The notes under the pieces are model-generated. The model did not search any database. It was not told the DNA's origin and saw only the letters and a list, made by a program, of their open reading frames with translations. From positions 76,155 to 140,154 of the forward strand of contig DDWR01000020.1 in the NCBI GenBank assembly GCA_002347655.1: 64,000 nucleotides of DNA. Direction: 5' to 3'. How positions within the stretch are numbered: the stretch's first letter is position 1; every line of letters starts with the position of its first letter. This document shows, one piece after another, positions 30,508 through 50,023 of the stretch. The translations under genes and the position numbers were made by a program. The stretch is from Verrucomicrobia bacterium UBA2281. GTDB taxonomy: Bacteria > Verrucomicrobiota > Kiritimatiellia > CAIQIC01 > Lenti-01.

Positions 30508-30523
30508 GAGGGAGGGGGGGCAT

Positions 30524-30561: not shown

Positions 30562-30618
30562 AAGGCAGGGACAAGAGATGCGAGATCCGAAGCCCGCGGG
30601 CAATGAAAAGGAGCGCAA

Positions 30619-32827: not shown

Positions 32828-32857
32828 CACTATTTCCGACAATCTCGGGGCTTTAAA

Positions 32858-33460
32858 GTGTCACCGGTTTCCTGTCACCTGTCTCCTGGGCTCGGTCTTT
32901 TCCTCCACGCTTCCGCAGTGGCGTTGCCGGAGGGGGCGGTGCTGTTTCTCGGCCATTCCACGGCCGGAAAAAGCACGCTGGCGCGGAAAATGGGCGAACA
33001 GGTGCCGGTGCTGGCCGACGATTCCGTGTATGCCGCGCGGGATGCGGAGGGGCTCTGGCGGGTGGTCGACGGGGGCTTTCGCTTTGACCAGGGCTGGGGC
33101 ATGGCCGAATGGATGACCGATGTCCGGCGGCACTTCCAGGAGGGGCGCGGGGTCCCTGTGCGGAAGTGCTTTCGCATCCATCAAGCGCCCGCGGTGCGGA
33201 TCGAGCCGATGCCGCCGGTGCAACTGGGGAAGCACCTGATGGACGCCGCGATGGAAATCGACGTGCAACGGAAATTCGGCAGAATAGCCGCGGATCGACC
33301 GTCGGAACGCAATGTCTGGCAGGAAGTTGTGCAACAAAGGCGGCTTTGGTTCCGGCTGACCGCGGAATTGGCCCGCAGCTGCCCGGGAGGGCACCTTTGG
33401 TTCGCCAAAGAGACGCCGGCAAGTGAAGTGTTGGCGGCGGTCGCCCAGACGCAAGGTTGA
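32858..33460 (+). CDS. HprK-related P-loop kinase (HPr kinase C-terminal-domain-like)
   Basis: Walker A GHSTAGKST (..AVLFLGHSTAGKSTLARKMGE..), about 200 aa, which is the size of the HprK C-domain. GTG start 31 nt after the rSAM stop. Confidence 0.55.
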   Translation: MSPVSCHLSPGLGLFLHASAVALPEGAVLFLGHSTAGKSTLARKMGEQVPVLADDSVYAARDAEGLWRVVDGGFRFDQGWGMAEWMTDVRRHFQEGRGVPVRKCFRIHQAPAVRIEPMPPVQLGKHLMDAAMEIDVQRKFGRIAADRPSERNVWQEVVQQRRLWFRLTAELARSCPGGHLWFAKETPASEVLAAVAQTQG

Positions 33461-33816
33461 GGCGGTTTTTCCAAAAAATCGCAACAAATGACCTGTTCGG
33501 GGCTGAAAACGGCTCCATTCGGCTCTGAAAAGCTCTCCAACGGCGGAAATTTCATCGAAAACGGATCAATTTTCGTTCTGCGCGCCCAAAATTAGCGGAA
33601 AGAGCCCTCTTGCGCGCCTCTGTTAAGCTGAAATTGCAGAAAACTCCTTAAAAATCGCCCTAAAACGGCCCAAAGGGCCCGAAGTCTTAATCAAAACCAC
33701 ACACGAATATAATCTATATTTAATTGTGCATGATTTGCGCACATTCCTGTGGGAGAATATGATGTCGTTATCAATTGAAGAGAGTTTCGCCGTCTGCAAC
33801 AGGTTGCGCGGAAAGA
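33461..33816 (+). promoter_or_regulatory. unusually AT-rich 350-bp intergenic region; putative promoter/regulatory region of the giant gene
   Basis: Abrupt drop in GC (ttccaaaaaatcgcaacaaatg.., ..aatataatctatatttaattgtgcatgatttgcgcaca..). Contains direct repeats gctgaaaacggctcc / ctctgaaaagctctcc and an imperfect palindrome tgtgcatgatttgcgcaca just upstream of the start. Confidence 0.3.
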
Positions 33817-36800: not shown

Positions 36801-39800
36801 GGCCGGCATCGACCTGGGGAACGGCCTTGGCGCGGCCATCACCAACTGGACGGACGAAAACGGCTACTACCTGTTCGAGTCGATCCCGACGACCGGGATC
36901 TACACGGTGCGGGTGGTGACGGCGACCCTGCCGGGCGGGACGGGCGTCAATACCTTCGACGAGGACGGCGTGCTGAACAGCCAGACCGCCGTCTACCTGG
37001 ACATCTACGCCAACGGCACGAACAACCTGCATCTGACGACCGATTTCGGCTACACCCTGCCCAGCACGATCGAAGGCACCATCTGGCACGATTATGATCG
37101 GGGGCAGGAAGCCTATCGCGAAGCCGGCGAGGACTGGATGACCAACGTGACGGTCTATCTGTGCGCCAGCCCGTCGCCCTGCGGCCCGGACGCGTCCATC
37201 GCCACCAACGTCACGACCACCAACGGCTATTTCCAGTTCACCGGCAACTTCATCGGCACCTACACCGTCTACGTTGCGACCAATTCCGGCATGCTCAGCA
37301 ACGGCTCGTGGAAGATCTCGTTCGACACGGACGGCACCAACACGCCGAATGTTGCCGCGGTGACGGTTCCGCTCGGCGGGACGGGGCGGGCGGACTTCAG
37401 CTACTTCCGCACCGGACCCTACCGGATCGGCGACACGGTGTTCTACGACTGGAACAGCGACGGCGTGCAGAACGTCGAATCCGAGGGCGGCATCTCCAAC
37501 GTCACGGTCTATCTCTACGAAGACGCCAACGGCAACGGCGTGGTGGACGCGGCGACCGACGCCTTCGTCGCCTCGACGGTCACCGCCACCAACGGCTACT
37601 ACCTGTTCACCAACCTGTTCGCGACGAACACCTACCTGGTGATCGTCGATCGGCAGGACCCCGACCTGCCGGCGAACTACATCGTGACCGCGGACCCCGA
37701 CGCCGTGAAGGACGCGCGCAGCGTCGTGACGATCGTCAACGCCGACGATTTCGACCAGGATTTCGGGTTCTGGCCCTACGGAAACGGCGCGATCGGCGAC
37801 ACGGTGTGGAAGGACGTGAACGCCGACGGGATCCAGCTGGGCTATCAGGAGCCGGGCATCGCCGGCGTGCGGGTCACGCTCTACTACGAAGCCAACGGAA
37901 CCTGGTGGCCGCTGCGGAGCATGGACACCGACGCCAACGGCATGTATCTCTTCGACTCCCTGCCGGACGGAAACTACCGGGTGGCGGTGGACGATGCGGA
38001 CGCCGACCTGCCGGTCGATGCCTTGGGCAACGCCTATTATCCGAGCACCCCCGTCTTCCACGACGCGACGATCAGCGGCGGCAACGTCTACCTGGACGCC
38101 GATTTCGGCTTCGCGCCCTACGGCGCGATCGGCGACACGGTCTTCTGGGACCTCAACCGCAACGGCGACCAGGACTTCAACGACCCCGGCGTGGCCGGCG
38201 TGGACGTTTACCTGTATGCCGACGCCAACGGCAACGGCATCTACGATGCGGGCGAAACGCTGGTGGCCACCGAAACCACCGACGCGACCGGGTTCTACGT
38301 GTTCTCCGGCCTGCTGCCGGACCGCTACGTCGTCGTGGTCGAAACGGCCAGCGGCCCGCTGGCCGGCACGGACCCGACCGCCGATCCGCAGTCGGACGGC
38401 CTGGCCTGCGACGATCCGCTCAACGTCGTGCCCTGCGACGACCAGTGCGGCTGGACGCTCGCGCCCGCGCAGATCTTCATGGGCGCGGACTTCGGCTATG
38501 CGCCGCGGGGCGTCATCGGCGACACGCTCTGGATCGATACCAACGGCAACGGCGTGCGCGACGAAAACGAACTCGGTATTCCGTACGTCGACGTGATCCT
38601 GTATTCCAACGGGGTGGCGATCGCCACAAACGCGACGGATGCCGACGGCTACTATGGCTTCAGCGGCCTGGTGGACTTCGCCAACTACGGCGTGCGGGTA
38701 GCGACCAACGACGTCGATTTCCCGGCCGGCCTGACGAACACCTGGACGGCGGACGGCACCTTCGACAACTACGCGACCAACATCGTGATGTCCGGCGGCG
38801 CCGTGACCTCGATCGGCGGCTATCCTTGCACGGACTGCGACCTGAACGTCGATTTCGGCTACCGCTACGCCGGCAACAACAGCCTGAGCGGCACGATCGG
38901 CCTCGACGCGCCGCCCTACGACGGCCTGATGAACGGCCTGAATCCGTCCGGTCCCGGCGCGGGCGAATCGCCCTATGCCGGCGTGCCGGTGACGCTCTAT
39001 CTCTGGAACGACGACGGCGACGGCATCCTCGAGGCCGGCGAAACCGTGCAGATCGGCACGAAGACCACCGATGCCAACGGGGATTACGCTTTCACGGGAT
39101 TGCCGAACGGCGACGGCAACGACAAGTACGTCGTGGCCAGCCCCGCGCCGGAAAGCTATCTGACGCTCACCACCACCAACGGCTCCATCGCCGGCGTGGC
39201 GGTGTTTTCGACGACCAATCTCCAGGGGTACGCCGTTTCCGCCCGGCTGGCGGTCGACGTCGCGGCGAACGTCACGAACATGGACTTTGCCTACGCCTCC
39301 CAGAAGGCCTACGACTACGGGGACCTGCCGGAGAGCTACAAGACGTTGCTGTCCGATGGCGCTCGGCACGTCGTGCCGCCGACGCCGAATCTCTATCTGG
39401 GCGCCGGCGTGGATACCGAACAGAACGGCGCACCTTCCACGGGCGCCGATGGCGACGATCTGGCCGGGACGGACGACGAGGACGGCGTGGTCCAGATCGT
39501 TTCGTCCACGTGGCGGACCGGCACGGCCGGCGGTTCCGTCGAAGTGACGGTGGGCGCGGGCAGCGGCTGGTTGCTGGGCTATATCGATTTCAACGGCGAC
39601 GGCGATTTCGTGGACGCCGGCGAAATGGTCTGCAACTTGGCGGTTTCGAACGCCGGCGGCAACGGGGTAGGAGTCTACACCAACGCGTTCACCGTGCCCG
39701 CCGGCACGTTCTCCGCGACCAGTTCCACGCCGCTCTACGCGCGCTTCCGGATTGTTCCGTCCCGGCCGCTGTTCCCCGAACTGGCCTATGCCGGCACGGC

Positions 39801-42800
39801 CGAAAACGGCGAAGTGGAGGATTATCTCTGGCATCTGGCCGGCCTGGGCGACTACGTCTGGTACGACGTGGACGGCGACGGCGTGCAGGACGCCGGCGAG
39901 CCGCCGATCGTCGGCGTGCGCGTGTTTGCCGACCTCAACGACGACGGCGTCTGGCAGACCACCGAACCTTCGGCGACAACCGATTCCAACGGGCTGTACG
40001 GCATCGGCGGACTGGTGCCGGGAACCTATTCCGTGCGGGTGGACACGAGCACGCTGCCGGCGGGCGTCACGCCGACCTACGACCTCGACGGCATCGGCAC
40101 GCCCCACCAAGCTTCGGCCGAAATCACGGCGCTCGACCAGTTCGTTGCCACCGTCGATTTCGGCTATGCTCCGCCGGTGAACATCGGCGATCGGGTGTGG
40201 TTCGACGCCAACCGCGACGGCATCCAGAACGCCAGCGAAACCAACGGGCTTTACGAAATCCCCGTCGCGTTGCTGGACACCAACGGGAACGTCGTGGCCG
40301 AAACGGCCACCGATTCTGAGGGCAACTACCTGTTCGCGAACATGCCGACCGGCACCTATCTGGTCCGGTTCGACCTGTCCGTCTTCACCACGAACGAAAT
40401 GCTCAGCCCGTCCAAGGTCGGCAGCGACGACGCCATCGACAACGATTGGGTTTCCGGCAACGCCAGCGACTACGCCTGGACGGCGCCGTTCTCCGTTTCG
40501 GGGGGCGAGGACTACCTGGACGTGGATCTCGGCGTGGCCACTCGTTCGCCGACGCGCGCCGAACTGGCCGAGGTCTGGGGCGAATGGGTGGAAAATGAAG
40601 GACGCGTGGTTTGGCGCACCGATGCGGAATACAGCACGGCCGGATTCTTCGTCTATCGCGTCGATCCGGAAACCGGCGCGGAATCGCGGTTGAACGAGCG
40701 ATTGGCGCTTTCCGCGTTCAACGAAGGCGGCGCGACCTACGCGCTGGCCGATCCCGCGGCGCGCGCCGGCGAGGAACGGACCTATCGCCTGGAAGAAGTC
40801 GAATTGTCCGGCGAACGCCGCGACCTGGGCACGCGCGAAATTCGTTTTGCAGAACCGGCTGAACCCACCGCGGTTTCCCGCTCGGCGCTGGCGGCGCCAC
40901 CCGCGAAAAAATCCGTTCGCCCCAAGGGCCTGGCGGGTCCGTCCGCGGTGCTGAAGGTTCACGTGGGCCGGGAGGGCCTCTATGGCTTGGGTTGGTCGGC
41001 CATCGCGGACGGCATGGGACTCGCGCCGGCGGACGTGCAGGCGCTGGCCGAAGCGGGTTCGCTGAAGATCGCGCGCCAAGGCGAACCCGTGCCGACGCTC
41101 GTCGATGCGGCGCGCGAACGGCTGCTCTTCCATGCGCGGCCACCGGTGCGCACCTGGTACGCGCACGACGACGTCTATCTGGTATCGGTCGGTGACGGGC
41201 TGCCGATGGTGCGGCGCGATCCAGGCGCGGTGGCCGGAACGACGGCCTTTCCGACGACGCTCCGCTTCGAAGAAAACAGATTCCTGTTCAGCATGAACCG
41301 CATGCCCGCCGATTTCTACTTCTGGATTCCGGTCATGAGCGGCTACGGGGAGCTGTCGGTGACCAACGTGCCGCTGGATCTGGGCGGCTATGCGGGCGGC
41401 GACGTGGCGCTGACCGTGCGCCTGATGGGCTGGTCCAGCTCGACCAATCATCCCGACCATCTGGCGCGGTTCGCCTTCAACGGCGTCGAACTGGGCGAGA
41501 TGTCCTTCGACGGGCAGGAGGTGGCCGAGGCCCATTTGGCGGTGCCGGCGTCCATCGTGTCGAACGGCGTCAATACCTTTGCGATCGAAGGGGTGCTGCA
41601 AGCCGGCCGCAGCGACAGCTTCTTCGTGGTGGATTGGGTGGATGCCTCGTTTGTCCGGACGCTGGCGCCCGAAACGATTCCCGCCGCGTTCGGCGCGAAC
41701 GGAGCCGCCGCGGTTTCCGCGCAGGCCTTCGCCGAACCGATCGCCGTGGCCGTGGACGAGATGGGCAACCCGACCTGGATTGCCGCCGAAAACGGGGAAT
41801 TGCCGACCAAAGCGTGGGCCGTCGCCTCGCCGACCGAACGGTATGCGGTCGTCGCGGCCGACGCGCTGCCGATGCTGGCGCCCGAGCCGGCCGCGGCGGA
41901 CGCCTGGTTCCTCTCGGCCGAAAACCAAATCGATTACCTGGTGATTGCCTCCCGCGACTTGGCCGCGGCGGCGCAGGAACTCGTGGATTATCGCGCGGGG
42001 CAGGGGCTGCGCGCCGGCTTGGCGACGTTCGAAGACGCCTGCGATTTGCTGACGGGCGGCGTGCGGACGCCGGAGGCCGTTCCGGCTCTGCTGAAGCGTG
42101 CCGCGGCGACCTGGGCGGTCGCGCCGCGGATGGTCGTGCTGGCCGGCAGCGGGCACTACGACTACCTGGGCATCAACTATGCCGAACCCAACCATCTGCC
42201 GCCGCTGCTGGTCCAGATGCCGGCCGGCGTGTGCGCTTCGGACGGCTTGCTGGCCGATACGGGCGGCGACGAACTGCCGGATCTCGCGATCGGGCGGTTG
42301 CCCGCGCTGACCGCCGCGGAACTGACCGCCATGATTGCGAAGATCAAGGCCTACGAAGCGGGCTTCGGCTCCGCATGGCAGAACCAACTCGTGCTGGCGG
42401 CGGACAACGCCGACGCGGCGGGTCCGTTCCTGGCGGCGAACCAGCGGTTGGCGGATTTGGTGGAAACGCCCTATGCGGTGGCCGAACGGATCGAACTGGA
42501 TTCGATGGCATTCGGCTTGGCGCGCACGAATCTCTTGCGCTGGTTCAACGTCGGCGCGGGCTTCATCAACTACGTCGGCCATGGCGACATCAAGAATCTC
42601 GCGTCGGAAAAGTGGCTGAAGGATACCGACGTGGCGGCGATGGTGAACACCTCCCGGCCGCCGGTGGTGGCCACGCTGACCTGCCTGGCGGCGCGGTACG
42701 AAGTGCCCGCCGTGCATAGCCTCGGCGAGCGCCTGCTGCGGCAAGCCGGCGGCGGCGCCGTCGCGGTGCTGGGTCCCTCCGGCCTTTCGCAGAACGCCCC

Positions 42801-44436
42801 GGCGACGGAACTGGGCGAGGCTTTCTACCGGGCGGTCCTGCAGGACGGCGCGGGCGAGCTGGGGCCGGCGTTCCTGAAAGCCCGCCGTTCCCTGCCGGCC
42901 ACGCTGTTCACGAAGGACACGATCGCGGTCTACAATCTGCTCGGCGATCCGGCGCTGAAGATCGCGGGCAACGACCCGGCGGACGAACCCGTTGCGCCGG
43001 CGCAGGTCATCCTCGCGGGGCTTGCGCAGACCTTCGACGGCACGCCGCGCGCCGCCGCCGCGACCACGGTTCCGGCGGGCCTCGCCGTCCGCATTTCCTA
43101 CGCCGGACAGTTGTCGGCGCCGACCGCGGCCGGCACCTATGCCGTGTGCGCGGCCGTGGCCACCGTGGGCTACGAAGGCTTCGCCACCGGCACCCTGACG
43201 GTGGCCCGGGCGCCGGCCGCCGTGACGCTCTCCGGACTGGAACAGGTTTACGACGGTACGCCGCGCGCCGCCGCCGCGACCACGGTGCCGGCCGGATTGG
43301 GGCTTGAATGGACCTATGCCGGCGATCCGAAGCCGCCGGTCGCGGCCGGAACGCATGAAGTCGTCGCGACGGTGGCGGACGCCAACTACTCCGGCGCGGC
43401 AACCGGCACGCTGGTGGTGGCCCAGGCGCCGGCCGCGGTGACGCTCGCGGACTTGGAACAGGTCTACGACGGTACGCCGCGCGCCGCCGCCGCGACCACG
43501 GTTCCGGCCGGCCTAACGGTCGCGTGGACCTATGACGGCGATCCGGAACCGCCGGTCGCGGCCGGCACCTATGAAGTCGTCGCGACCGTGGCCGAGGCCA
43601 ACTATTCCGGCGCGGTCACGGGACTCCTGACGCTGGCCCGGAAACCGGCCGGCATCGTGCTGGGCAACTTGCAGCAAACCTGCGACGGCACGCCGCGGCA
43701 CGCGACCGCGACTACCGACCCGGCCCACTTGGCCGTGGACTTCACCTACGACGGTCGGCCGCTGGCCCCGACGACAGCCGGCAGCTATGCCGTCGTTGCC
43801 GCGATCGGCGATGCGAACCATGCCGGCGGCGCCACGGGCACGCTCGTGGTTGCGCGCGGCGTCGCGGAAGTCGCGCTCCGCGACCTCGCGCACGTGTACG
43901 ACGGGGCGCCCAAATGCGCGGCGGCGACGACTCGGCCGGCCGGCCTGCCGGTGCGGGTGACCTACGATGGATGGGACGCTCCGCCGTCGGCCGCCGGCAC
44001 CTACGAAGTCGTCGCCACCGTCGTGGATGAAAATTTCACGGGTTCCGCCACGGGCACGCTGGCCATCTTGGAGATCGTCGATCCGTTCGAGCGCTGGCTG
44101 GAAACCCAAAGCCTGGATCCGCTGGACGTCCGCATGGCCTGGGACGAGGATGGCGACGGCGATGGGCAAACCACCTGGGAAGAATATTTGGCCGATACCG
44201 ATCCGGCGGATTCCGAAGTTCTCTTCGCGGTCGAGGGGTACTATGCCGAAGACACCAAGGCGATCCACCTGACGTTCCCGGCCAGTCCAAACCGCTACTA
44301 CCAACTCGAGTATTCGACCAACCTGTTTGCCCCCACCCGGGTCCTCGATCTGGGGTGGGGCACCACCGGCTATTTTGCCACGAACGCTCCCGGCCAATGG
44401 TTTGGAACGATCCGGGTCCGGATGGATCCACCTTAG
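33817..44436 (+). CDS. giant secreted multidomain surface protein (about 3,540 aa): signal peptide, DUF11 domain, about 20 SdrD-B-like Ca-binding beta-sandwich repeats, GEVED domain, peptidase-C25 (gingipain)-like domain, six MBG repeats, conserved C-terminal module
   Basis: ATG 33817 (MRKRSTFRIGRCSWCAMAAALVLAGPVWG, signal-like); the track starts at TTG 33775. Repeated GDTVW(R/K)D.N.(N/D)G.QD..E.G..GV.V.LY....G......T.TD..G.Y.F..L..G.Y.V units. ENGEVEDY. HG/Cys motifs of C25 (..INYVGHGDIKNL.., ..ATLTCLAARYE..). (YDGTPR..AAGTYEVVATV..NY.G.ATGTL)x6. Confidence 0.8.
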   Translation: MRKRSTFRIGRCSWCAMAAALVLAGPVWGGNPDGDLRVEIITAYNLVVDSNAESPSTYAPKSAYIGAKFCNDGANALTNVWAYIGDLDAGTPGTYPSRAHPPLVGPLPGGEFALVHEGGTMGANDATRYVGTIEPGECVTVYWLVSYPQLDENGDAVWGPSIKPDDDLWLEYDVWATARDGGAYLQADDSRTLTCRNEISAMANKIWPNGANKVPQEYKDLLQQYAPLWTNTSAVAEPGAILRTEGIWYDLGNVGDGFDNDGDLVPDRNAWLQPVGDPDLFDPSCFRLVRTYAMVIVKLNDGTEQVIVVEDQLYFTQIPANNRGAVGYVMYEFIAIGSGCVSTLTPYQEVASGFDNEKFNGDYGAPGQTLTGGTSLLAIAKTADPTLTRPGSNVAYTVTYTNSGPDPSGRPDIGLPVVIQDAIPTGTVYVAGSATAANVLPQGVGSYTVYFSTNHGLTWSLTEPAIATNVTDVQWWLSDPLPPGGTGTVKFSVTVKNPWPYPSPVVPNTSGLSFGNTTPFLWAHAQTLLLGNNALGDTVWRDDGEGGGLLGNQLQDGGETGITGVTVRLYYDLDGDGGADYLFATTNTGASGYYTFTNLPDGHFVVVVDAADPDVPFGYTPTTPTAFPIALDPARTNVNPVVDWTSDFGFAPALTLVKTWTSTNAVREGQLIGYNLTVSNSLPGDGTGSGSPATYFAWASTGGANYKNTEWVDYWNAYTPPGPDGVYCSNQFAGPTTVLSLTNFTVGAQLGEATTVSLVIPILMVPPIGGDDTVTIDVRTKSPSESRFTETYLATNLVNGVWTIPMTGIYDWAWADFDTNAVVTLTAKKNAGGTAGGWILVDAVGFKIESDQTVGVAGGTTTLDPVPLVDRYDPARLQFVSAQPPESRVVSNGTGTIYWDNVGPIYPGGTSTVAVTFKLLEPPNNTNAVVTNTTWVTNAYFQGGAQANNATSSVVVTQFPAATVGDYVWRDLDGDGIQDAGEPGVPNVAVSITPPAGIDLGNGLGAAITNWTDENGYYLFESIPTTGIYTVRVVTATLPGGTGVNTFDEDGVLNSQTAVYLDIYANGTNNLHLTTDFGYTLPSTIEGTIWHDYDRGQEAYREAGEDWMTNVTVYLCASPSPCGPDASIATNVTTTNGYFQFTGNFIGTYTVYVATNSGMLSNGSWKISFDTDGTNTPNVAAVTVPLGGTGRADFSYFRTGPYRIGDTVFYDWNSDGVQNVESEGGISNVTVYLYEDANGNGVVDAATDAFVASTVTATNGYYLFTNLFATNTYLVIVDRQDPDLPANYIVTADPDAVKDARSVVTIVNADDFDQDFGFWPYGNGAIGDTVWKDVNADGIQLGYQEPGIAGVRVTLYYEANGTWWPLRSMDTDANGMYLFDSLPDGNYRVAVDDADADLPVDALGNAYYPSTPVFHDATISGGNVYLDADFGFAPYGAIGDTVFWDLNRNGDQDFNDPGVAGVDVYLYADANGNGIYDAGETLVATETTDATGFYVFSGLLPDRYVVVVETASGPLAGTDPTADPQSDGLACDDPLNVVPCDDQCGWTLAPAQIFMGADFGYAPRGVIGDTLWIDTNGNGVRDENELGIPYVDVILYSNGVAIATNATDADGYYGFSGLVDFANYGVRVATNDVDFPAGLTNTWTADGTFDNYATNIVMSGGAVTSIGGYPCTDCDLNVDFGYRYAGNNSLSGTIGLDAPPYDGLMNGLNPSGPGAGESPYAGVPVTLYLWNDDGDGILEAGETVQIGTKTTDANGDYAFTGLPNGDGNDKYVVASPAPESYLTLTTTNGSIAGVAVFSTTNLQGYAVSARLAVDVAANVTNMDFAYASQKAYDYGDLPESYKTLLSDGARHVVPPTPNLYLGAGVDTEQNGAPSTGADGDDLAGTDDEDGVVQIVSSTWRTGTAGGSVEVTVGAGSGWLLGYIDFNGDGDFVDAGEMVCNLAVSNAGGNGVGVYTNAFTVPAGTFSATSSTPLYARFRIVPSRPLFPELAYAGTAENGEVEDYLWHLAGLGDYVWYDVDGDGVQDAGEPPIVGVRVFADLNDDGVWQTTEPSATTDSNGLYGIGGLVPGTYSVRVDTSTLPAGVTPTYDLDGIGTPHQASAEITALDQFVATVDFGYAPPVNIGDRVWFDANRDGIQNASETNGLYEIPVALLDTNGNVVAETATDSEGNYLFANMPTGTYLVRFDLSVFTTNEMLSPSKVGSDDAIDNDWVSGNASDYAWTAPFSVSGGEDYLDVDLGVATRSPTRAELAEVWGEWVENEGRVVWRTDAEYSTAGFFVYRVDPETGAESRLNERLALSAFNEGGATYALADPAARAGEERTYRLEEVELSGERRDLGTREIRFAEPAEPTAVSRSALAAPPAKKSVRPKGLAGPSAVLKVHVGREGLYGLGWSAIADGMGLAPADVQALAEAGSLKIARQGEPVPTLVDAARERLLFHARPPVRTWYAHDDVYLVSVGDGLPMVRRDPGAVAGTTAFPTTLRFEENRFLFSMNRMPADFYFWIPVMSGYGELSVTNVPLDLGGYAGGDVALTVRLMGWSSSTNHPDHLARFAFNGVELGEMSFDGQEVAEAHLAVPASIVSNGVNTFAIEGVLQAGRSDSFFVVDWVDASFVRTLAPETIPAAFGANGAAAVSAQAFAEPIAVAVDEMGNPTWIAAENGELPTKAWAVASPTERYAVVAADALPMLAPEPAAADAWFLSAENQIDYLVIASRDLAAAAQELVDYRAGQGLRAGLATFEDACDLLTGGVRTPEAVPALLKRAAATWAVAPRMVVLAGSGHYDYLGINYAEPNHLPPLLVQMPAGVCASDGLLADTGGDELPDLAIGRLPALTAAELTAMIAKIKAYEAGFGSAWQNQLVLAADNADAAGPFLAANQRLADLVETPYAVAERIELDSMAFGLARTNLLRWFNVGAGFINYVGHGDIKNLASEKWLKDTDVAAMVNTSRPPVVATLTCLAARYEVPAVHSLGERLLRQAGGGAVAVLGPSGLSQNAPATELGEAFYRAVLQDGAGELGPAFLKARRSLPATLFTKDTIAVYNLLGDPALKIAGNDPADEPVAPAQVILAGLAQTFDGTPRAAAATTVPAGLAVRISYAGQLSAPTAAGTYAVCAAVATVGYEGFATGTLTVARAPAAVTLSGLEQVYDGTPRAAAATTVPAGLGLEWTYAGDPKPPVAAGTHEVVATVADANYSGAATGTLVVAQAPAAVTLADLEQVYDGTPRAAAATTVPAGLTVAWTYDGDPEPPVAAGTYEVVATVAEANYSGAVTGLLTLARKPAGIVLGNLQQTCDGTPRHATATTDPAHLAVDFTYDGRPLAPTTAGSYAVVAAIGDANHAGGATGTLVVARGVAEVALRDLAHVYDGAPKCAAATTRPAGLPVRVTYDGWDAPPSAAGTYEVVATVVDENFTGSATGTLAILEIVDPFERWLETQSLDPLDVRMAWDEDGDGDGQTTWEEYLADTDPADSEVLFAVEGYYAEDTKAIHLTFPASPNRYYQLEYSTNLFAPTRVLDLGWGTTGYFATNAPGQWFGTIRVRMDPP

Positions 44437-44491
44437 GATTGCGCCGGCGAGGGAACCTGCTAGGATAACGCCAGAACCGAAGGAGTTTCCG

Positions 44492-44899
44492 ATGTCCGAA
44501 AACAAGCGGCTGAAATACGAAAAACCGATGAGCATCGACTTGGGCCGGGTGGCGCCGATCTTGGGCGACACCTGCAGCGTCGGCAACGGCGCCGCGGATT
44601 GTCCCGCCGGCATGAACAACGCGACGGTGGCGGTGTGCGATCCTTCGGGGTCCGGCGCCGACAACGATTGCCGCACCGGATCGAACGCCGGTACGTTCTG
44701 CTGGCCGACCGGTTCCGGGGCCGTGGTGTATTGTTTGGCGGGTTCCGGGTTCGGGGCGAGTTCGCGGAGCATGCCCGAGCCGACTTCCTCCGGCTATGAT
44801 TCGCCCGACAGCGGCGGGAGCGACCCCTATTCTACGACGTTGCCCGGCAGCGAACCTTCCTCGCCGGACAGCGGTGGAGATCGCTCTTCGGGGCTGTAG
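44492..44899 (+). CDS. candidate RiPP precursor: small Cys-rich peptide with a leader-like N-terminus (KYEKPMSIDLG) and a Ser/Pro/Gly-rich C-terminal tail
   Basis: AAGGAG 7 nt upstream of ATG 44492. 135 aa with no Sec-type hydrophobic signal. Six Cys at about 10-12-residue spacing, each in a Gly/Ser-rich context (CSVGNGAADCPAGMNNATVAVCDPSGSGADNDCRTGSNAGTFCWPTGSGAVVYC). Tail is ..SSGYDSPDSGGSDPYSTTLPGSEPSSPDSGG.. Confidence 0.5.
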   Translation: MSENKRLKYEKPMSIDLGRVAPILGDTCSVGNGAADCPAGMNNATVAVCDPSGSGADNDCRTGSNAGTFCWPTGSGAVVYCLAGSGFGASSRSMPEPTSSGYDSPDSGGSDPYSTTLPGSEPSSPDSGGDRSSGL

Positions 44900-44954: not shown

Positions 44955-45575
44955 ATGGATCCGAAACGGAATCCACCGGATGAGCCCCTCCGCCGTCGCC
45001 TGTCCCGAATCTCGGCCCCTTGCCGCGGCCACAGCATGCGCGGAACCTTGGCGGAAGGGGACGGCGTGCAGATCGCTTCCGTTCCCTATGATTTGCTCCG
45101 CCGGGGCGACGTGGTGGCCTACCGTTCCGGCGATCAGTTGGTCTTGCATCGGATCGTCGGTCGCCGGGGCGGGTATTGGCGTACGCAAGGCGACGGCAAC
45201 TGGCGGCAGGACGCCGCTCCGCTTGCGCCGGAACGGTTCATCGGAGTCGTGACCGCGCGCGAACGGAACGGTACGACGTCGGTCGTGACGGGCGGCGCCG
45301 CCGGCGCCCGGCGGGCGGCCGGGCTGCATGTCTGGGCCTTCGTGCGCTGGTCGGCATTGACGACGTTCGCGCCGCTGTATCGCCTGCTCCGCGCCAGCCG
45401 AGCGGTTGCGCTGGTCTGGCGACCCCGAATTTTGGCCGTGCGTTTCGCCGCGCCCGGGGGGGCGGTCACCAAGTTCGTCCATCGCGGGCGCTCCGTGGCC
45501 CAATGGGTTCCGCAGGCCGATCGCTGGACGTGCCGGAAGCCCTACGATCTGTTGCTGTCGCGGCCGGGCCGATGA
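44955..45575 (+). CDS. S24/S26-family serine peptidase (signal-peptidase-I-like; possible leader peptidase)
   Basis: ..CRGHSMRGTLAEGDGV.. (Ser nucleophile box), ..RRGDVVAY.., ..LHRIVGRRGG.., ..TQGDGNW.. No obvious N-terminal TM anchor. Start choice (ATG 44955) uncertain; the in-frame ORF opens at 44796. Confidence 0.5.
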   Translation: MDPKRNPPDEPLRRRLSRISAPCRGHSMRGTLAEGDGVQIASVPYDLLRRGDVVAYRSGDQLVLHRIVGRRGGYWRTQGDGNWRQDAAPLAPERFIGVVTARERNGTTSVVTGGAAGARRAAGLHVWAFVRWSALTTFAPLYRLLRASRAVALVWRPRILAVRFAAPGGAVTKFVHRGRSVAQWVPQADRWTCRKPYDLLLSRPGR

Positions 45576-46810
45576 GCCCGGCCCTTCCGCCCGCCGGGCC
45601 GTCCGGCGCTGAAATGAACCTGCTGTGCGCCTGCGCGAGTCCGGCCTATGCCGCGCAAACGGCGGAGTTCTTTGACCGCGGCGGCTCGGTTTCCTGGCCC
45701 CGGTTCGTGGCCTTGGCGACCAACCACCACTTGCTGCCGCTGGTCCACCGCGCGCTCAAAGCCGTTCCGGAACGCGTGCCGGCCCAGTGGTTGGCCCGGT
45801 TGCGGGAATCGCAGACCGCCATCGCGGCCCATAACCTCCGGGCGTGCGCCACGTTGCGGCGGCTGCAGAAACGGTTGGAAGCGGATGGAAACCGGCTGGT
45901 CCCCGTCAAGGGGCCGGCCTTGGCGCTGCTGGCCTTTGGCGACGTCGCGCTGCGCCAGTTCGAGGATCTGGATCTGATCGTGCGCCGGGCCGAGCTGCTG
46001 CGGGTCGTCGCCATCCTCGAACAGGAAGGTTTCCGTCTGCGGGAACTGGCCGCCGGCGTCGATCGCGCCCGCTATCTGGAAACGCTGCAAAACTGGTCGC
46101 TGGAAAAGCCGGGCTTTCCCCCGCTCGATCTCAAGCCGGTGCTCATTTCCCATGCGCTGTGCGGGCCGGCTTCCGCCGATTTCATGGCGGCCGCTTGCCG
46201 CCAAATTCCAAACGCCGCGTTTCCTGGCCTGTCGGCTCCCGGTCCGGCCGAGATGCTGCTGGCGGTCTGCCTCGATGGGGCCAACGAAATGTGGATCAAG
46301 CTTTCGGCGGTGGCCGACGTCGGGGCGTTGATCGCGAAGCATGCGGACGTGGACTGGGCGCGGTATTTGGCCGAAGCCAAACGCCTAGGGCACCGGCGCA
46401 GCCTGCTGGTCGGGGCGGCCCTTGCCGAAGACCTGCTGGGCGCGGTTCTGCCGGCGGCCTTTCGTGAAGGCCTTCGCAACGACCCGGCGGCCCGGCGATT
46501 GGCGGAGCAGGTGGCCGCCCGCCTGCGGTCCGCGGCGCCCCGGCAGAACCTTGCTTTTCGCCAGAGCGTGTTTGCGCTTCGGACGCGGGAACGGTTCCGC
46601 GATCGGTGGCGGTTCCTCCGGCGGCTGCTGTTCGTGCCGGGCGCCTATGAATTCACCCGTTGGCCTTGGCCGCGCGCGCTGCAGCCGCTGTATTCGCTGG
46701 TCCGGCCGCTTCGATTGGCCTGGACCGTCGCGGTGCGCGGGGGCCGGGCCGATCGATTGACGGTTTTGCCGGCGCATGCGAAATTGGCGCCCGGCGGAAG
46801 CAACCCATGA
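45572..46810 (+). CDS. nucleotidyltransferase-family protein (NTP_transf_5 / PF14907-like, the kind associated with lasso-peptide and HprK-related peptide-modification loci)
   Basis: ATGA overlap at 45572. ..LVPVKGPALALLAFGDVALRQFEDLDLIV.. (nucleotidyltransferase core). 412 aa. Confidence 0.55.
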   Translation: MSPALPPAGPSGAEMNLLCACASPAYAAQTAEFFDRGGSVSWPRFVALATNHHLLPLVHRALKAVPERVPAQWLARLRESQTAIAAHNLRACATLRRLQKRLEADGNRLVPVKGPALALLAFGDVALRQFEDLDLIVRRAELLRVVAILEQEGFRLRELAAGVDRARYLETLQNWSLEKPGFPPLDLKPVLISHALCGPASADFMAAACRQIPNAAFPGLSAPGPAEMLLAVCLDGANEMWIKLSAVADVGALIAKHADVDWARYLAEAKRLGHRRSLLVGAALAEDLLGAVLPAAFREGLRNDPAARRLAEQVAARLRSAAPRQNLAFRQSVFALRTRERFRDRWRFLRRLLFVPGAYEFTRWPWPRALQPLYSLVRPLRLAWTVAVRGGRADRLTVLPAHAKLAPGGSNP

Positions 46811-48606
46811 ATACGGCGAAGAAACGATGGCACCATCTGGCCCAGGCAACCGGACTGGTCTGGCGCAGCGCGCGCCCGTGGACGCTCTTGCAAGGAGGGG
46901 TGGTCGTGGCGCAGGGCTTGTTGCCCGTGGCCTCGCTCTATTTGATCCGCCAGGTCGTCGATGCCGTTGGCCGGTTTCTCGCCCAGGCGCCCGGCGACAA
47001 GGATCCCGGGCCGTTGCTGGCGTTGTTGCCGTGGGTGGGCGGGGTGGTGGTGGTCGGCTGGATCCTGCGGGCCGGTTCGGGGATCGTCGCCGAAGCGCAG
47101 GCCGAAGCCGTCGCCGACCACGTGCAGGGTGCCCTGCAGAAGAAATCCGCCGAAATCGATCTGGCCTACCACGAAACGGCGGCCTGGCACGACCAGATGC
47201 GCTTGGCGCAGTCCGAAGCCATGACGCGCCCCGTCGGCATCGTGCGCAATCTGACGCAACTGGGCAGCGGGGTGCTGGTTTTGGGATCGGTCGTCGGCGT
47301 TTTGGGGCTGTCGCAGGGATTCCTGCTGCCGGTGCTCTTGGCGGCAGCGCTGCCGGGCGCCGGGGCCCGGATCTGGAATTCGCGCCGTTGGCATGCCTGG
47401 CGGGTGGCGCATAGCCCGGCGGAACGGCAAGCCGGCTATCTGCACTTGCTGCTGACGTCGTTTCCGTTCGCGAAAGAGATCCGCCTGCTGGGAACCGCCG
47501 GCGAATGGCGTCGCCGGTTCGGCGCGGTCCGCGCCGAACTCCGCCGGAGCCGCCTGGCTTTCGGCCGCCGCCGCGCGGCCATCGAGATCGCCGCGGACGG
47601 GGTCTCGGCGGTCGCCATCTTGGGCGGTTTGGGACTGATCTATCTGCGGATTTCGGGGAATGCGATGACCTTGGGCGATCTGGCGATGCTGTACGGCGGG
47701 TTCCAGAAAGGCAAATCCGCCTTCGCGGGCGTGCTGGGCAGCCTGGCGGCGTTGTATGAGGACGCCTTGTTCATCGGCCACTTCTACGATTTCCTGAACT
47801 TGCCGCATCAGGTCCGTTCACCGGCCGAGCCAAAACCCGTGCCCCGCCGGATCGTGCAAGGTTTCCGGCTGGAGCACGTTTCGTTCCGGTATCCGGGGTG
47901 CGATCGCGATGCGCTGCAAGACGTCACGGCCGAGATCCGCGTGGGCGAACAAGTGGCGCTGGTGGGGGAAAACGGTTCGGGCAAAACGACGCTGGTGAAA
48001 CTGCTGTGCCGCCTGTACGACCCGACCGCGGGCCGGATCCTGCTGGACGGCGTGGATCTGCGCGAGTTCGCGCTGGAGGATTTGCGCACCGCGTTCAGCG
48101 TTCTGTTCCAGGATTTCGGCCGCTACCAGATGACGGCCGAGGAAAACGTGCGCTGGGGGGACGTCGCGGTGCCGGCGGGCGATCCGCGGATCGCGGAGGC
48201 CGTGCGCCGGGGCGGCGCCGAGGCGGTCGTCGCGCAGCTGCCCCAAGGCCTGCAAACCCAGCTGGGGCGTTTGTTCAAGGGCGGCCTGGAGCTCAGCGAG
48301 GGCCAATGGCAGCGGCTGGCCCTGGCCCGCGCATTCCTCCGCGCCGCGCCGATCCTGATGTTGGACGAACCGACCAGTTCCCTCGACGCCAAGGCGGAGC
48401 GGGAATTGCTGGCAACGGTGCTGGCCGGCAGCCAGGGCAAGACCACGGTCATCGTGAGCCATCGGCTCTCGACCGTCCAAGCGGCCAGCCGGATCCTGGT
48501 CTTGGCCGACGGGCGCCTGGCGGAGACCGGTACCCATGCGGAACTGTTGCGGGCCGGCGGGGCCTATCCGGCGCTGTTTGCCCTGCACGCGCCGGATTCG
48601 GCCTAG
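46807..48606 (+). CDS. ABC exporter, fused permease plus ATPase (type I exporter, RiPP/lipid-exporter-like)
   Basis: ATGA overlap at 46807. 6-TM N-terminal domain, Walker A (GENGSGKTT), signature (LSEGQWQRLALARA), Walker B (ILMLDEPTSSLD), H-loop (VIVSHRL). Confidence 0.8.
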   Translation: MNTAKKRWHHLAQATGLVWRSARPWTLLQGGVVVAQGLLPVASLYLIRQVVDAVGRFLAQAPGDKDPGPLLALLPWVGGVVVVGWILRAGSGIVAEAQAEAVADHVQGALQKKSAEIDLAYHETAAWHDQMRLAQSEAMTRPVGIVRNLTQLGSGVLVLGSVVGVLGLSQGFLLPVLLAAALPGAGARIWNSRRWHAWRVAHSPAERQAGYLHLLLTSFPFAKEIRLLGTAGEWRRRFGAVRAELRRSRLAFGRRRAAIEIAADGVSAVAILGGLGLIYLRISGNAMTLGDLAMLYGGFQKGKSAFAGVLGSLAALYEDALFIGHFYDFLNLPHQVRSPAEPKPVPRRIVQGFRLEHVSFRYPGCDRDALQDVTAEIRVGEQVALVGENGSGKTTLVKLLCRLYDPTAGRILLDGVDLREFALEDLRTAFSVLFQDFGRYQMTAEENVRWGDVAVPAGDPRIAEAVRRGGAEAVVAQLPQGLQTQLGRLFKGGLELSEGQWQRLALARAFLRAAPILMLDEPTSSLDAKAERELLATVLAGSQGKTTVIVSHRLSTVQAASRILVLADGRLAETGTHAELLRAGGAYPALFALHAPDSA

Positions 48607-48678: not shown

Positions 48679-50010
48679 ATGCGCAATTGGATCCAGACCC
48701 TGCGCTTCCGGGGGGCGTTTTGTGCCGGTTGCTTGGCGGTTTCGGCCTGGGCCGGCCCAGGCAACGGCATCAACGTCGCGTCCTGGGTGTTGAGTCCTTA
48801 TTTGGAATTGAATCTGACCGACGATTCGAACGTCTACAAGGACGGCACGAACGTGATCTCCGACGTGTTCTTCGAGCCGGAGCTGGGCTTGCGCTTCAGC
48901 TCCTCCTCGGAAACCAATACCTTCCTGATCAAGGGCAACCTGTTTTTGTCGGACCGGACCTACGACACCGAAAGCAACCGCGATTTCATGACTTATGGGG
49001 ATCACTTGACCCTGCAACTGGGCAACGGCCGCAAATCCCTGCTCGAAGTGATCCAGAGCTACCGCTTTTTGGACGACAACGACCGGCATGCGTCGGACAT
49101 CGAATCGTCGCGCCTCTCCGGCGAGATGGTGGAAGACAGCAACGCGCTGGATCTGGAGCGCGAACTGCACCAGTTGGGCGGTCTCCTGTCGCGGCGCATG
49201 TCCGACAAGCTGCAGCTGGCGTTGTCCTATCGCTATTCCGGCGTCCATTATCCGAACGAAACCCACGACCGCCTGCGCCGCAAGCAGGAAGAATACGTGC
49301 CGGAAGGCCTGGATCTGGACGGGCACATCTGGCAGTTGGAGGGCGCGCTGGGGCTGACGGACAAGACCGACGCCCTGCTGACGCTGCGCCAAGGCTTGCA
49401 ATACCAGGAGAAAACGGACGATCCGGCCGAGCTGACGACGATCCGGCTGGGCTTGCAGACGCAAGGGGCCCAGAAGCTGGTCTATCACGTCGGCGCGGGA
49501 TTGGAATACTATGCCCGGCCCTCCCAGACGCGGTTCGCCGATGCGGACGTCGACGAAAACGACGTCCAGATCGACGAAGAAGGCGTGCAGAGCGACAACG
49601 ACCAGATCTACTTCAGTTTCAATGCCGCGGCGGATTGGTTCATCACGGAAAAGCTGACCTTCCGCATCGGCGGCTACAACGGCACGGAGTTCTCGTCGTT
49701 CTACTCGCGCAACGGCATGGAATACGTCAGCGCCTGGGCCGGCCTGGGGTACCGCTGGAAACCGAGCTGGATTTTCTCCATGCGCGGGATCTATCGCCAC
49801 GACGACTATCTGGATCCGGTCACGCACGAAGGGGTGACGAAGGACCGCAAAGACGTGCGCGTCGAAGGTCACGGGCGCATCGATTACATCGCGCCGGGCA
49901 ACTTCCTGCGGGTCTATTTCGAGGCGGTCTACGACGAGGTGGATTCCAACTTCGATTTCGTGGACTACGTCGATCGGCGCCTCATCCTGGGCGCCATCAT
50001 CCAGTACTAG
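48679..50010 (+). CDS. outer-membrane beta-barrel protein (putative porin/export channel)
   Basis: Signal-peptide-like N-terminus (MRNWIQTLRFRGAFCAGCLAVSAWA). Alternating amphipathic beta-strands. C-terminal aromatic residue (..LILGAIIQY), typical of OMP barrels. Confidence 0.5.
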   Translation: MRNWIQTLRFRGAFCAGCLAVSAWAGPGNGINVASWVLSPYLELNLTDDSNVYKDGTNVISDVFFEPELGLRFSSSSETNTFLIKGNLFLSDRTYDTESNRDFMTYGDHLTLQLGNGRKSLLEVIQSYRFLDDNDRHASDIESSRLSGEMVEDSNALDLERELHQLGGLLSRRMSDKLQLALSYRYSGVHYPNETHDRLRRKQEEYVPEGLDLDGHIWQLEGALGLTDKTDALLTLRQGLQYQEKTDDPAELTTIRLGLQTQGAQKLVYHVGAGLEYYARPSQTRFADADVDENDVQIDEEGVQSDNDQIYFSFNAAADWFITEKLTFRIGGYNGTEFSSFYSRNGMEYVSAWAGLGYRWKPSWIFSMRGIYRHDDYLDPVTHEGVTKDRKDVRVEGHGRIDYIAPGNFLRVYFEAVYDEVDSNFDFVDYVDRRLILGAIIQY

Positions 50011-50023
50011 GAGGGCGGGCGGC

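Follow-up and report, generated by a model that had tools for sequence, protein, structure and literature searches.

A 135-residue open reading frame in the window, by which we mean the whole 64,000-nucleotide stretch of DNA analysed here, very probably encodes the ribosomally synthesised precursor (effectively an 'ScmA') for a peptide-maturation cassette that resembles the SynChlorMet (SCM) cassette. This cassette is uncharacterised and occurs in several bacterial phyla; its genes encode an exporter and a protease akin to signal peptidases, in addition to a kinase-like protein and a pair of radical-SAM enzymes. The peptide is unannotated, having no Pfam or NCBIfam model, and is not covered in the literature that was searched.

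Gene and homologue family

The gene is read on the forward strand from an ATG at position 44492 to a stop codon at 44897-44899, giving an ORF of 135 aa (44492-44899). The good ribosome-binding site ascribed to it in the original prediction was read from the sequence as AAGGAG (44480..44485, +), with a 6-nt spacer to the ATG. The in-frame GC3 was 0.80, and the frame plot changed to the peptide frame at about 44450. Nucleotide comparison with 12 related loci gave differences of 152:68:427 at codon positions 1:2:3. Judged by these coding signals, the ORF is a real coding gene under purifying selection. A 190-aa version initiated at a TTG (from 44327) was rejected, as it runs into the end of the neighbouring giant gene and every homologue begins at the Met before KYEKP. 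The promoter and terminator scan flanking the gene performed no better than shuffled sequence, and the RNA fold of the 3' intergenic region gave z = 0.26; these results therefore give no indication that the gene has a promoter or attenuator of its own.

The search for relatives retrieved 105 close homologues of 78-170 aa (58-100% identity), and a profile search added approximately 58 more distant ones, likewise small (66-118 aa), in which the leader and the spacing of the Cys recur. Family-wide, 237 of 247 Cys-Cys intervals measured 9-12 residues. Residues 1-88 were 81-87% identical, compared to 45-70% for the neighbouring proteins, and the peptide is the best-conserved protein of the locus. 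A core conserved to this degree is atypical of antimicrobial RiPPs.

Leader and core

The leader comprises residues 1-25 (MSENKRLKYEKPMSIDLGRVAPILG; 44492..44566, +) and carries a recognition-type motif of the form YxKP...G. The leader-like character proposed for the N-terminus was upheld by an alignment of 49 diverse sequences, in which Y9 and P12 were invariant and K11, G18 and G25 nearly so. The family motif reads YEKPxS(I/L/V)DxGxVAPxxG, and the first Cys came 19 residues after the Tyr in 43 of the 49 sequences. At P+2 the leader has a small residue, and in this it differs from the motif [Y/W]xxPx[LVIFA] of lasso peptides and linear polyphosphorylated peptides (LPPs). The boundary between leader and core would fall after G25. 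Inspection of the sequence and the alignments by eye agreed with the expected lack of a Sec signal: KRLKYEKP gives the N-terminus a charged character, no hydrophobic stretch exceeds VAPILG, and no signal peptide with a hydrophobic core was seen in the peptide or in the family alignments.

The core (residues 26-88; 44567..44755, +) holds six Cys in CxxGxxAxxxC-type repeats, as defined by the alignments and the family-wide Cys spacing. These Cys are located at residues 28, 37, 49, 60, 70 and 81, and the gaps of 9, 12, 11, 10 and 11 confirm the predicted spacing of 9-12 residues. Residues 1-88 are near-invariant. The AlphaFold (AF2) model of the peptide had a pLDDT of 50 and was devoid of secondary structure, while the leader alone reached a pLDDT of 73-80. 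The model suggests a peptide with no autonomous fold, which we take as a sign of a disordered substrate. The peptide, its residues 1-90 and its leader matched nothing in Pfam (at E up to 10) or in NCBIfam.

Cassette genes in the window

Four Scm-like genes are co-located on one strand at 29083-33460, with a gene for a 127-aa IVS protein as the sole interruption. The ScmE-like protein (29083..30507, +) is a radical SAM/SPASM enzyme that carries a fused PqqD domain at its N-terminus (Pfam PqqD, Radical_SAM and SPASM). Its score of 404.3 bits against TIGR04250 exceeded the cut-off of 400, and the ScmE proteins of peptide-linked cassettes elsewhere scored 379-383 bits. CxxxCxxC occurs at residue 126, and there is a cluster of Cys near the C-terminus. 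The ScmD-like PqqD/RRE protein (30999..31631, +; PqqD E=1e-16; start uncertain) scored 42.9 bits against TIGR04248, below the cut-off of 100, and matched the lasso RREs TfuB1 and TbiB1. At the 5' end of its gene there is a tandem repeat of 12 copies of a 7-bp unit. The ScmF-like radical SAM/SPASM enzyme (31628..32827, +; CxxxCxxC at residue 41) scored 331.2 bits against TIGR04251, which is below the cut-off of 400 but still by far the best-matching family. Both radical-SAM enzymes retain CxxxCxxC and SPASM-type Cys clusters.

The ScmC-like gene (32858..33460, +) encodes a small P-loop protein with an HprK-like fold, a putative peptide Ser kinase. It has the P-loop GHSTAGKST and an invariant DD pair. 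By sequence, the ScmC profile gave only generic P-loop matches among solved structures; the HprK/P likeness emerged from the fold search, in which the AF2 model (pLDDT 88.8) had HprK/P structures as its best Foldseek matches. The HprK-like identity that had been assigned to this 200-aa neighbour thus holds at the level of the fold. The protein scored 24.3 bits against TIGR04249, below the cut-off of 125, and its close homologues are annotated as PF27840 'ScmC' in precomputed annotation.

A giant surface-type protein of 3553 aa is encoded between ScmC and the peptide (33775..44436, +; Pfam SdrD_B x10, MBG_3 x5, Peptidase_C25 and GEVED). Its position is conserved in Kiritimatiellia and it is missing from the cassette in other phyla; it probably stands outside the pathway. 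The peptidase gene that was predicted just 3' of the peptide encodes an S26 signal-peptidase-like protein of the Sec11/archaeal type (S26B; 44955..45575, +), in an ORF that opens at 44796 and has its probable start at 44955. This protein matched TIGR02228 at E=1e-8, under the cut-off, and its profile matched SEC11C at E=2e-12. The Ser/His/Asp motifs GxSM, HR(I/V) and GDxNxxxD are conserved, and it is a plausible candidate for the leader peptidase. Further downstream are an NTP_transf_5 nucleotidyltransferase (45569..46810, +; PF14907, 144 bits), whose location 3' of the peptide is conserved in synteny, and an MsbA-like ABC exporter with fused permease and ATPase (46807..48606, +), identified by domain matches and synteny. 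A BBP2_2-type outer-membrane beta-barrel (48679..50010, +) follows and is conserved downstream in Kiritimatiellia only. The starts of these three genes are predicted. The peptide locus as a whole is embedded in an exopolysaccharide (EPS) locus.

Conservation of gene order

The original prediction called for homologous small ORFs next to PqqD, radical-SAM and HprK-like genes in other genomes, and these were found in all 13 informative loci outside Kiritimatiellia (L010-L013, L020, L030-L032 and L034-L038), which come from Aminicenantes, Clostridia, Desulfobacterales and unclassified genomes. In each, the peptide gene lies directly 5' of the S26 peptidase gene within an operon of the type ScmE-ScmD-ScmF-ScmC-peptide-S26 peptidase (-NTP transferase-ABC), and a PqqD gene occurs less than 4 kb away. 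In L034 and L037, the peptide gene is flanked by ScmF and ScmD. A conserved leader and co-location with an RRE across genomes, which together mark an RRE-recognised RiPP precursor, were thus both observed. This synteny supports the proposal of a leader-bearing precursor for PqqD-guided radical-SAM/SPASM enzymes, to which the conserved leader and the lack of an AF2 fold also point. The syntenic conservation, and the absence of a signal peptide from the alignments as read by eye, are the opposite of the unconserved ORF or signal-peptide-bearing homologues that had been named as outcomes contrary to the prediction.

In the window itself, the peptide gene is located 11 kb from the radical-SAM genes, beyond the unrelated giant gene of 10.7 kb. 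The same order, ScmE-IVS-ScmD-ScmF-ScmC-giant-peptide-S26-NTP-ABC, is repeated in L043 and L004 on one contig, and in L040 ScmC lies immediately 5' of the giant gene. Eleven peptide-bearing contigs are identical in size to ScmC-bearing contigs, a match that links the two genes to shared contigs. In the L007/L016 lineage, the genes 5' of the giant gene are unrelated (NAD synthase, thioesterase, DTW and GNAT), and no Scm genes occur within 10 kb; ScmC was assigned to the same 56,979-bp contig solely by matching contig size.

Relation to known systems

Haft's SCM cassette (TIGR04248-TIGR04251) and the window have in common an operon that pairs the PqqE-like radical SAM/SPASM enzyme ScmE with another radical-SAM enzyme, ScmF, and also encodes the small protein ScmC and the PqqD-like ScmD. 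However, ScmE alone reaches its model cut-off in the window, with ScmF, ScmD and ScmC below theirs. Unlike canonical SCM, the window's ScmE carries the fused N-terminal PqqD domain; its ScmD is about 200 aa, and its ScmC is about 200 aa compared to 292 aa in the model. The sub-cut-off scores, the fused PqqD domain and the differing sizes point to a sister clade rather than a canonical SCM cassette. A canonical cassette was found in L031/L032 (ScmE 508, ScmF 407 and ScmD 100.4 bits), and its ScmF is directly followed by a short ORF that is rich in Cys and whose leader reads YESPELHDLG. The L031 peptides had no match in NCBIfam, and a homologue search with the small ORF retrieved its own cluster only, so that generalising to canonical SCM cassettes rests on one lineage. 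To our knowledge, the TIGRFAMs text identifies no SCM precursor, and the literature searched on SynChlorMet, Scm proteins, the leader motif, and RiPPs combining radical SAM with HprK yielded nothing relevant.

LPPs are YxxP-leader peptides processed by an SpI-like peptidase (LppS), an RRE (LppB), an HprK kinase (LppK), an NTP transferase (LppN) and an MsbA-like pump (PMC13381572). They are encoded in capsule loci, and Popov et al. (2026, PMC13381572) reported their clusters to be confined to Bacillota. Every member of this gene set, the discrete RRE included, is matched in the window; both systems lie in polysaccharide loci, and both have precursors with a YxxP leader and a variable C-terminus. 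The LPP leader consensus YxxPxVLxHQxIxFETxxS, in contrast, is not followed by the window peptide, with which YxxP alone is common. LPP clusters are without radical-SAM enzymes, LPPs being defined by polyphosphorylation of Ser as their main modification and by the lack of a cyclising or cross-linking enzyme, whereas the window cassette has two radical SAM/SPASM genes in its operon and a periodic Cys core. Furthermore, the window-type cassette occurs in Gram-negative and other anaerobic phyla. The comparison of genes and sequences indicates that the cassette is an SCM sister clade fused to LPP-type machinery.

In the phosphorylated lasso peptides paeninodin and pseudomycoidin, an HprK-type kinase phosphorylates a Ser and an NTP_transf-like enzyme places a hexose on the phosphate (PMC6993621). 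PsmK and PsmN of pseudomycoidin act like the LPP kinase and NTP transferase (PMC6993621). These systems share a PqqD-type RRE and an ABC exporter with the window, which differs in having no lasso cyclase or B2 protease, the S26 peptidase as the candidate leader remover, and radical-SAM enzymes. The ranthipeptides and sactipeptides (matured by PapB, CteB and the SCIFF maturases, and by AlbA and StsB) resemble the window system in their Cys-rich precursors and RRE-guided radical SAM/SPASM cross-linking. By score, ScmE falls outside these families, with 87.9 bits against PapB (NF047865; cut-off 340), 113 bits against StsB (cut-off 625) and 64.5 bits against AlbA (cut-off 850), and SCIFF (TIGR03974) was absent among the top NCBIfam matches of the window's radical-SAM enzymes. 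Both of these enzymes lie far under the PapB and SCIFF family cut-offs. The window peptide is also much longer than their precursors, and the systems known to us normally have one maturase and no kinase, NTP transferase or S26 peptidase. The ranthipeptide likeness would therefore hold only as a general analogy; the class itself is defined by a non-alpha thioether, in which Cys sulfur is joined to a beta or gamma carbon. In quinohemoprotein amine dehydrogenase, QhpC is a small leader-bearing Cys protein that is cross-linked by the radical SAM/SPASM enzyme QhpD, with a dedicated peptidase and ABC export. A small Cys protein with a leader is likewise accompanied by radical SAM/SPASM, peptidase and ABC genes in the window; unlike in Qhp, there are no dehydrogenase subunits nearby.

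Alternative explanations

One alternative is that the peptide serves only an LPP-like module (S26 peptidase, ScmC, NTP transferase and ABC transporter), giving a linear phosphorylated or glycosylated product while the radical-SAM enzymes act elsewhere. The LPP system functions without such enzymes (PMC13381572), the S26 peptidase is the tightest and most universal neighbour of the peptide, and in Kiritimatiellia the radical-SAM genes are parted from it by at least one large gene. We nevertheless consider this improbable: both radical-SAM genes share the peptide's operon in 13 of the 13 loci outside Kiritimatiellia, in two of which ScmF and ScmD lie on either side of the peptide gene, and ScmE has a fused PqqD/RRE domain of its own. 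SPASM enzymes are, moreover, known to act on periodic Cys-rich cores of this kind. The described LPP precursors, with the leader consensus given above and variable C-termini, show no Cys-repeat core (PMC13381572).

The modified peptide could also be a cross-linked structural or cofactor-like subunit, comparable to QhpC, working with the EPS machinery or the giant surface protein. Its length (88-135 aa), its very high within-clade conservation, its constant adjacency to the giant SdrD_B/Peptidase_C25 protein in Kiritimatiellia, and its place in an EPS locus, as with LPPs in capsule loci, are in keeping with such a role. We give it little credence, as other phyla are without the giant gene in the cassette, ScmE scored only 77 bits against the QhpD model (cut-off 453) and no partner enzyme is evident; this view bears on what the product does and can stand alongside the precursor reading. 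It is barely credible that the ORF encodes a normal small secreted protein rich in disulfides, or that it arose by chance in DNA of high GC content. Many spurious ORFs overlap the region (67% GC) and the six Cys could pair as three disulfides, yet the coding-type substitution pattern, at least 160 homologues, the lack of a fold in AF2, the lack of a visible signal peptide, and an operon shared with RRE and radical-SAM genes across phyla all argue otherwise, and the synteny and conservation data already contradict it.

Proposed pathway and its implications

For the preferred reading, a precursor of the SCM-like cassette, the data establish that the gene is real, that its family is conserved, that it belongs to the operon and which domains the neighbouring proteins have. 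From these we infer the biochemical steps, including where the leader is cut and how the core is cross-linked, as follows. The leader (approximately residues 1-25) would be bound by the PqqD/RRE domains, both the stand-alone ScmD-like protein and the PqqD portion of ScmE. The unstructured CxxGxxAxxxC-repeat core would then be modified by both radical SAM/SPASM enzymes, with Cys-derived thioether cross-links as the likeliest chemistry. The HprK-like P-loop protein ScmC may place a phosphate on a Ser, which the NTP_transf_5 enzyme may in turn extend; both steps follow the documented precedent of the phosphorylated lasso peptides and LPPs. The leader would be taken off by the Sec11-type S26 peptidase, and the product exported by the MsbA-like ABC transporter; in Kiritimatiellia, the BBP2_2 barrel may carry it through the outer membrane.

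More tentatively, the pathway may be a hybrid, in which SCM-type radical-SAM cross-linking of the repeat core precedes LPP-type (poly)phosphorylation and perhaps glycosylation, with signal-peptidase-type leader removal before export. The family would in that case be the missing SynChlorMet substrate, and the tailed Kiritimatiellia product might serve the EPS or cell surface rather than act as an antibiotic.

We know of no precursor for the SCM-type radical-SAM cassette, and the peptide is a concrete candidate substrate for this orphan cassette with NCBIfam (TIGR) models. The results also link two fields, placing the LPP-type module in Kiritimatiellia, Aminicenantes, Desulfobacterales and Clostridia and coupling it to radical-SAM enzymes. 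The recurrence inside polysaccharide loci hints at an envelope or biofilm role. The precursor sequence, leader motif and enzyme set make heterologous reconstitution and mass spectrometry easy to design.

The C-terminal tail

Residues 89-135 and the stop codon (44756..44899, +) form an acidic Ser/Thr/Pro/Gly-rich tail that is lineage-specific and hypervariable. The Ser/Pro-rich tail is present as originally described; its sequence and length vary, from 0 to 77 aa among homologues, and only its composition is conserved. The tail is confined to Kiritimatiellia/Verrucomicrobiota members and absent from P0093-type and all distant members. Its description as an obvious target of the HprK-like kinase and the nucleotidyltransferase was not sustained, given this hypervariability and restricted distribution. 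The tail is best explained as a disordered accessory extension peculiar to Kiritimatiellia. Across the family no Ser is invariant, and a Ser after the first Cys was present in just 27 of the 49 sequences.

The tail was also considered as a conserved modification site and rejected. P0093-type members without a tail retain NTP_transf_5, and all of the tailless distant members retain ScmC, which both count against the tail as the target of the kinase and the nucleotidyltransferase. As a separate observation, ScmC is present in at least the L016 lineage, which is related to the tailless P0093-type members.

Conservation of the peptide gene

The candidate precursor is a 135-aa product encoded at 44492-44899 (+), with its ATG located 6 bases downstream of AAGGAG. 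The region is 67% GC and contains many spurious ORFs; the frame plot changes to the peptide frame, in which GC3 is 0.80, exactly at the ORF. The Cys are residues 28, 37, 49, 60, 70 and 81 (intervals of 9, 12, 11, 10 and 11), and the N-terminus, MSENKRLKYEKPMSIDLGRVAPILG, is charged and by eye has no signal-peptide-like hydrophobic core. The original prediction of an ORF with a good ribosome-binding site, six Cys at 9-12 spacing and no Sec signal was borne out on these points.

A search of ~5.8 billion proteins retrieved 105 homologues (78-170 aa, 58-100% identity), the few named members being from Kiritimatiellia, Kiritimatiellae or Opitutae metagenome-assembled genomes. Alignment of the homologues showed that residues 1-88 (leader and Cys core) were nearly invariant, whereas the tail varied freely in sequence and length. 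Against 12 related loci, codon positions 1:2:3 of the ORF carried 152:68:427 nucleotide differences. Identity over residues 1-88 was 81-87% in related loci, compared with 45-70% for the flanking proteins, making the peptide the best-conserved product at the locus. Judged from the sequence comparisons, the ORF is a real and strongly constrained gene. No Pfam or NCBIfam model matched the peptide, and the cassette and leader motif were absent from the papers searched. The AF2 model, built from a 49-sequence alignment, had a pLDDT of 50 and no secondary structure, with the leader alone reaching 73-80, which is compatible with an unstructured substrate.

Genes surrounding the peptide

An exopolysaccharide locus (ATP-grasp, GT4, DUF3473 deacetylase, Bac_transf, DegT and Polysacc_synt_2) is located upstream in the window. 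The ScmE-like PqqD-radical SAM-SPASM fusion (29083-30507) scored 404 with the NCBIfam ScmE model, reaching the cut-off of 400. It is followed by a ScmD-like PqqD protein (30999-31631), a second radical SAM/SPASM enzyme whose best match was ScmF (31628-32827; 331 against a cut-off of 400), and a P-loop protein of 200 aa whose ScmC and HprK-related matches were weak (32858-33460). The giant gene at 33775-44436 (3553 aa) carries ten SdrD_B and five MBG_3 domains, a gingipain-type Peptidase_C25 and GEVED. Then come the peptide, the peptidase expected just downstream, which is of S26 type, NTP_transf_5, an MsbA-like ABC exporter, a BBP2_2 barrel and a 186-aa protein.

Both radical-SAM enzymes retained the CxxxCxxC and C-terminal Cys clusters, and ScmD weakly matched the lasso RREs (PqqD-type leader-binding domains) TfuB1 and TbiB1. 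The ScmC alignment kept GHSTAGKST and an invariant DD pair, the same arrangement as in HprK/P, where a P-loop is followed by an Asp-Asp pair. The best Foldseek PDB matches of the ScmC model (pLDDT 88.8) were HprK/P structures (probability 1.0, TM only 0.41-0.48), then PEP carboxykinase. Given these motif and fold matches, the name HprK-like is reasonable for the modelled protein, though it is divergent. Two adjacent Asp, D158 and D159, form the predicted metal-binding site of PsmK in the pseudomycoidin system (PMC6993621). The S26 protein conserved GxSM, HR(I/V) and GDxNxxxD, and its profile matched human SEC11C and SEC11A (E = 2e-12 to 1e-10); on the basis of these motifs and matches, it is assigned to the archaeal/eukaryal (S26B) type.

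Several further features were observed. Twelve tandem copies of the heptanucleotide GACCTCG (90% matches; window 31001-31084), encoding TSDLRPR repeats, lie at the 5' end of the ScmD-like ORF; the repeat is degenerate in L041 and not found in L043, both loci from other genomes. As the unit is 7 bases, one copy more or less would shift the ScmD frame, and the repeat may be a slipped-strand on/off switch of the RRE gene. A 127-aa 23S-rRNA-IVS (bAvd-like) protein, of four-helix-bundle type, is encoded at a conserved place between ScmE and ScmD in cassettes from Kiritimatiellia (window 30619-31002, L041 3204-3587, L042 1872-2255, L043 7842-8222), with a weak relative downstream of the cassette in the Clostridia locus L035. 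The BBP2_2-type outer-membrane barrel and a 177-199-aa protein without a family match directly follow the exporter (window 48679-50584; equivalents in L001, L004, L006 and L014-L029), among the loci compared only in those of Kiritimatiellia. At 53638-62226, a second giant ORF of 2862 aa encodes an alpha-amylase catalytic domain at its N-terminus (PF00128, E=3e-12); by eye, its C-terminal region is similar to the corresponding part of the giant protein described above, with DxDxDG-type repeats.

Association with radical-SAM genes in other genomes

Loci outside Kiritimatiellia were gathered by two look-ups and a GTDB species-genome scan and mapped by tblastn, which gave 13 informative loci: Aminicenantes (L012, L013, L020), Clostridia (L030, L035), Desulfobacterales/'delta' (L034, L036, L037, L038) and unclassified (L010, L011, L031, L032). 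The peptide gene was within the cassette, among PqqD/rSAM/HprK-like genes, in all 13. The commonest order was ScmE-ScmD-ScmF-ScmC-peptide-S26(-NTP_transf_5-ABC), with NTP-ScmE-ScmF-peptide-ScmD-ScmC-S26-ABC in L034 and L037. Comparative genomics thus upheld the reading of a leader-bearing precursor, and a role as substrate of PqqD-guided radical-SAM/SPASM enzymes is well supported at the sequence level. The label 'ranthipeptide' is not supported.

Within Kiritimatiellia, L043 and L004 overlap on contig SABN01000001.1 and together present the full order of the window, including the IVS-protein gene, while L040 contains the end of ScmC just ahead of the giant gene. ScmC and peptide homologues had identical longest-contig sizes in 11 cases (587179, 177816, 110045, 108585, 94008, 85788, 56979, 54782, 24874, 23785 and 13761). 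In the L007/L016 lineage, NAD synthase, thioesterase, DTW and GNAT genes lie upstream of a shorter giant gene, and no Scm genes were found within 10 kb. This cassette seems to be split rather than lost, since the ScmC homologue P0229 is recorded with a 56,979-bp contig, the same size as that of L016, and on related contigs another giant gene comes after ScmC.

The giant gene was always directly upstream of the peptide in Kiritimatiellia/Verrucomicrobiota loci, and the cassettes of other phyla lack it. One Kiritimatiellia lineage has a PDDEXK_3 nuclease-family gene between ScmF and ScmC (L041 5454-5852, L042 4122-4520), a further sign that the cassettes tolerate gene insertions.

The wider family and the tail

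Searching 1.84 billion representative proteins with a profile of tail-less members brought up ~58 further small proteins (66-118 aa). These share the leader (K/R)YEKPxS(I/L/V)DxGxVAPxxG and carry 4-9 Cys in CxxGxxAxxxC repeats. Among 49 diverse members, the Tyr-to-first-Cys distance was 19 in 43, Cys-Cys intervals were 9-12 residues in 237 of 247 cases, and the C-terminus mostly lay 6-10 residues past the last Cys.

The tail is acidic, rich in Ser/Thr/Pro/Gly, nearly free of Lys and Arg, and 0-77 aa long; the homologue P0093 has none. It had been proposed as the target of the HprK-like kinase and the nucleotidyltransferase. This was not supported: NTP_transf_5 is retained in Kiritimatiellia members that have no tail, as is ScmC in the distant members, likewise without one, so the tail cannot serve as the conserved target of the two enzymes. 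No Ser was invariant across the 49 diverse members. A Ser follows the first Cys in 27 of the 49 and, by analogy with Ser+3 of the linear polyphosphorylated peptides (LPPs), is a weak candidate for the ScmC target.

Relation to known systems and proposed pathway

Without its radical-SAM half, the window locus matches the LPP clusters of Popov et al. 2026 (PMC13381572). There, the RRE LppB presents the substrate to the leader peptidase LppS, an archaeal-type signal peptidase; the HprK kinase LppK polyphosphorylates core Ser+3; and the clusters, which sit in capsule loci, also carry the NTP transferase LppN and an MsbA-like pump (PMC13381572). The leader of LPP precursors is of YxxP type and their C-termini vary; the family has no radical-SAM enzymes and a reported range of Bacillota only (PMC13381572). 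In pseudomycoidin, the C-terminal Ser is phosphorylated by an HprK homologue, and hexose addition requires the NTP-transferase-like PsmN (PMC6993621).

The peptide system is predicted to be of radical-SAM RiPP type, combining SynChlorMet (SCM)-type and LPP-type machineries. It is notable for supplying an unannotated precursor family and for joining the two machineries in one system. In the best-supported scheme, the leader would dock onto the PqqD domains, and both radical SAM/SPASM enzymes would modify the periodic Cys core, with thioethers as the likeliest product; two such enzymes suggest two chemistries. ScmC would phosphorylate a Ser, and NTP_transf_5 may decorate the phosphate. The S26 peptidase would then remove the leader. 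Signal peptidases prefer small residues at -1 and -3, and ILG|D is proposed as the candidate site because it fits this rule. The product would leave via the ABC pump.

Across all peptide-linked cassettes, ScmE scored 379-404 bits, at or just under the SCM cut-off, while ScmF (331-336), ScmD (43-65) and ScmC were clearly under theirs. The peptide-linked cassettes are a sister clade of the canonical SCM cassette. A canonical cassette occurs on the other strand of L031 and L032 (ScmE 508, ScmF 407, ScmD 100.4 bits). It also includes a further PqqD gene, genes for an HprK-like protein and an ABC exporter, and an S26 peptidase whose 57.7 bits exceed the cut-off of 51.85. Directly after ScmF lies a 72-aa Cys-rich ORF (L031 11716-11931, L032 9190-9405; both -) reading MDPKKMNYESPELHDLGVTEAIGACDGGG...C...C...C, with leader MNYESPELHDLG; as in the peptide family, a YxxPxLxxLG leader precedes Cys repeats. 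A homologue search with the L031 ORF returned nothing beyond its own cluster, so the extension to canonical SCM cassettes covers one lineage.

More small Cys-rich ORFs, with the leaders LYQKPKAVSLSG and QWQKPKLIVLG, were observed in Aminicenantes, at L012 12134-12304 (+) and L020 11203-11370 (+), beside extra radical-SAM, S26-like or ScmC-like genes, which suggests that these genomes each hold several paralogous systems.
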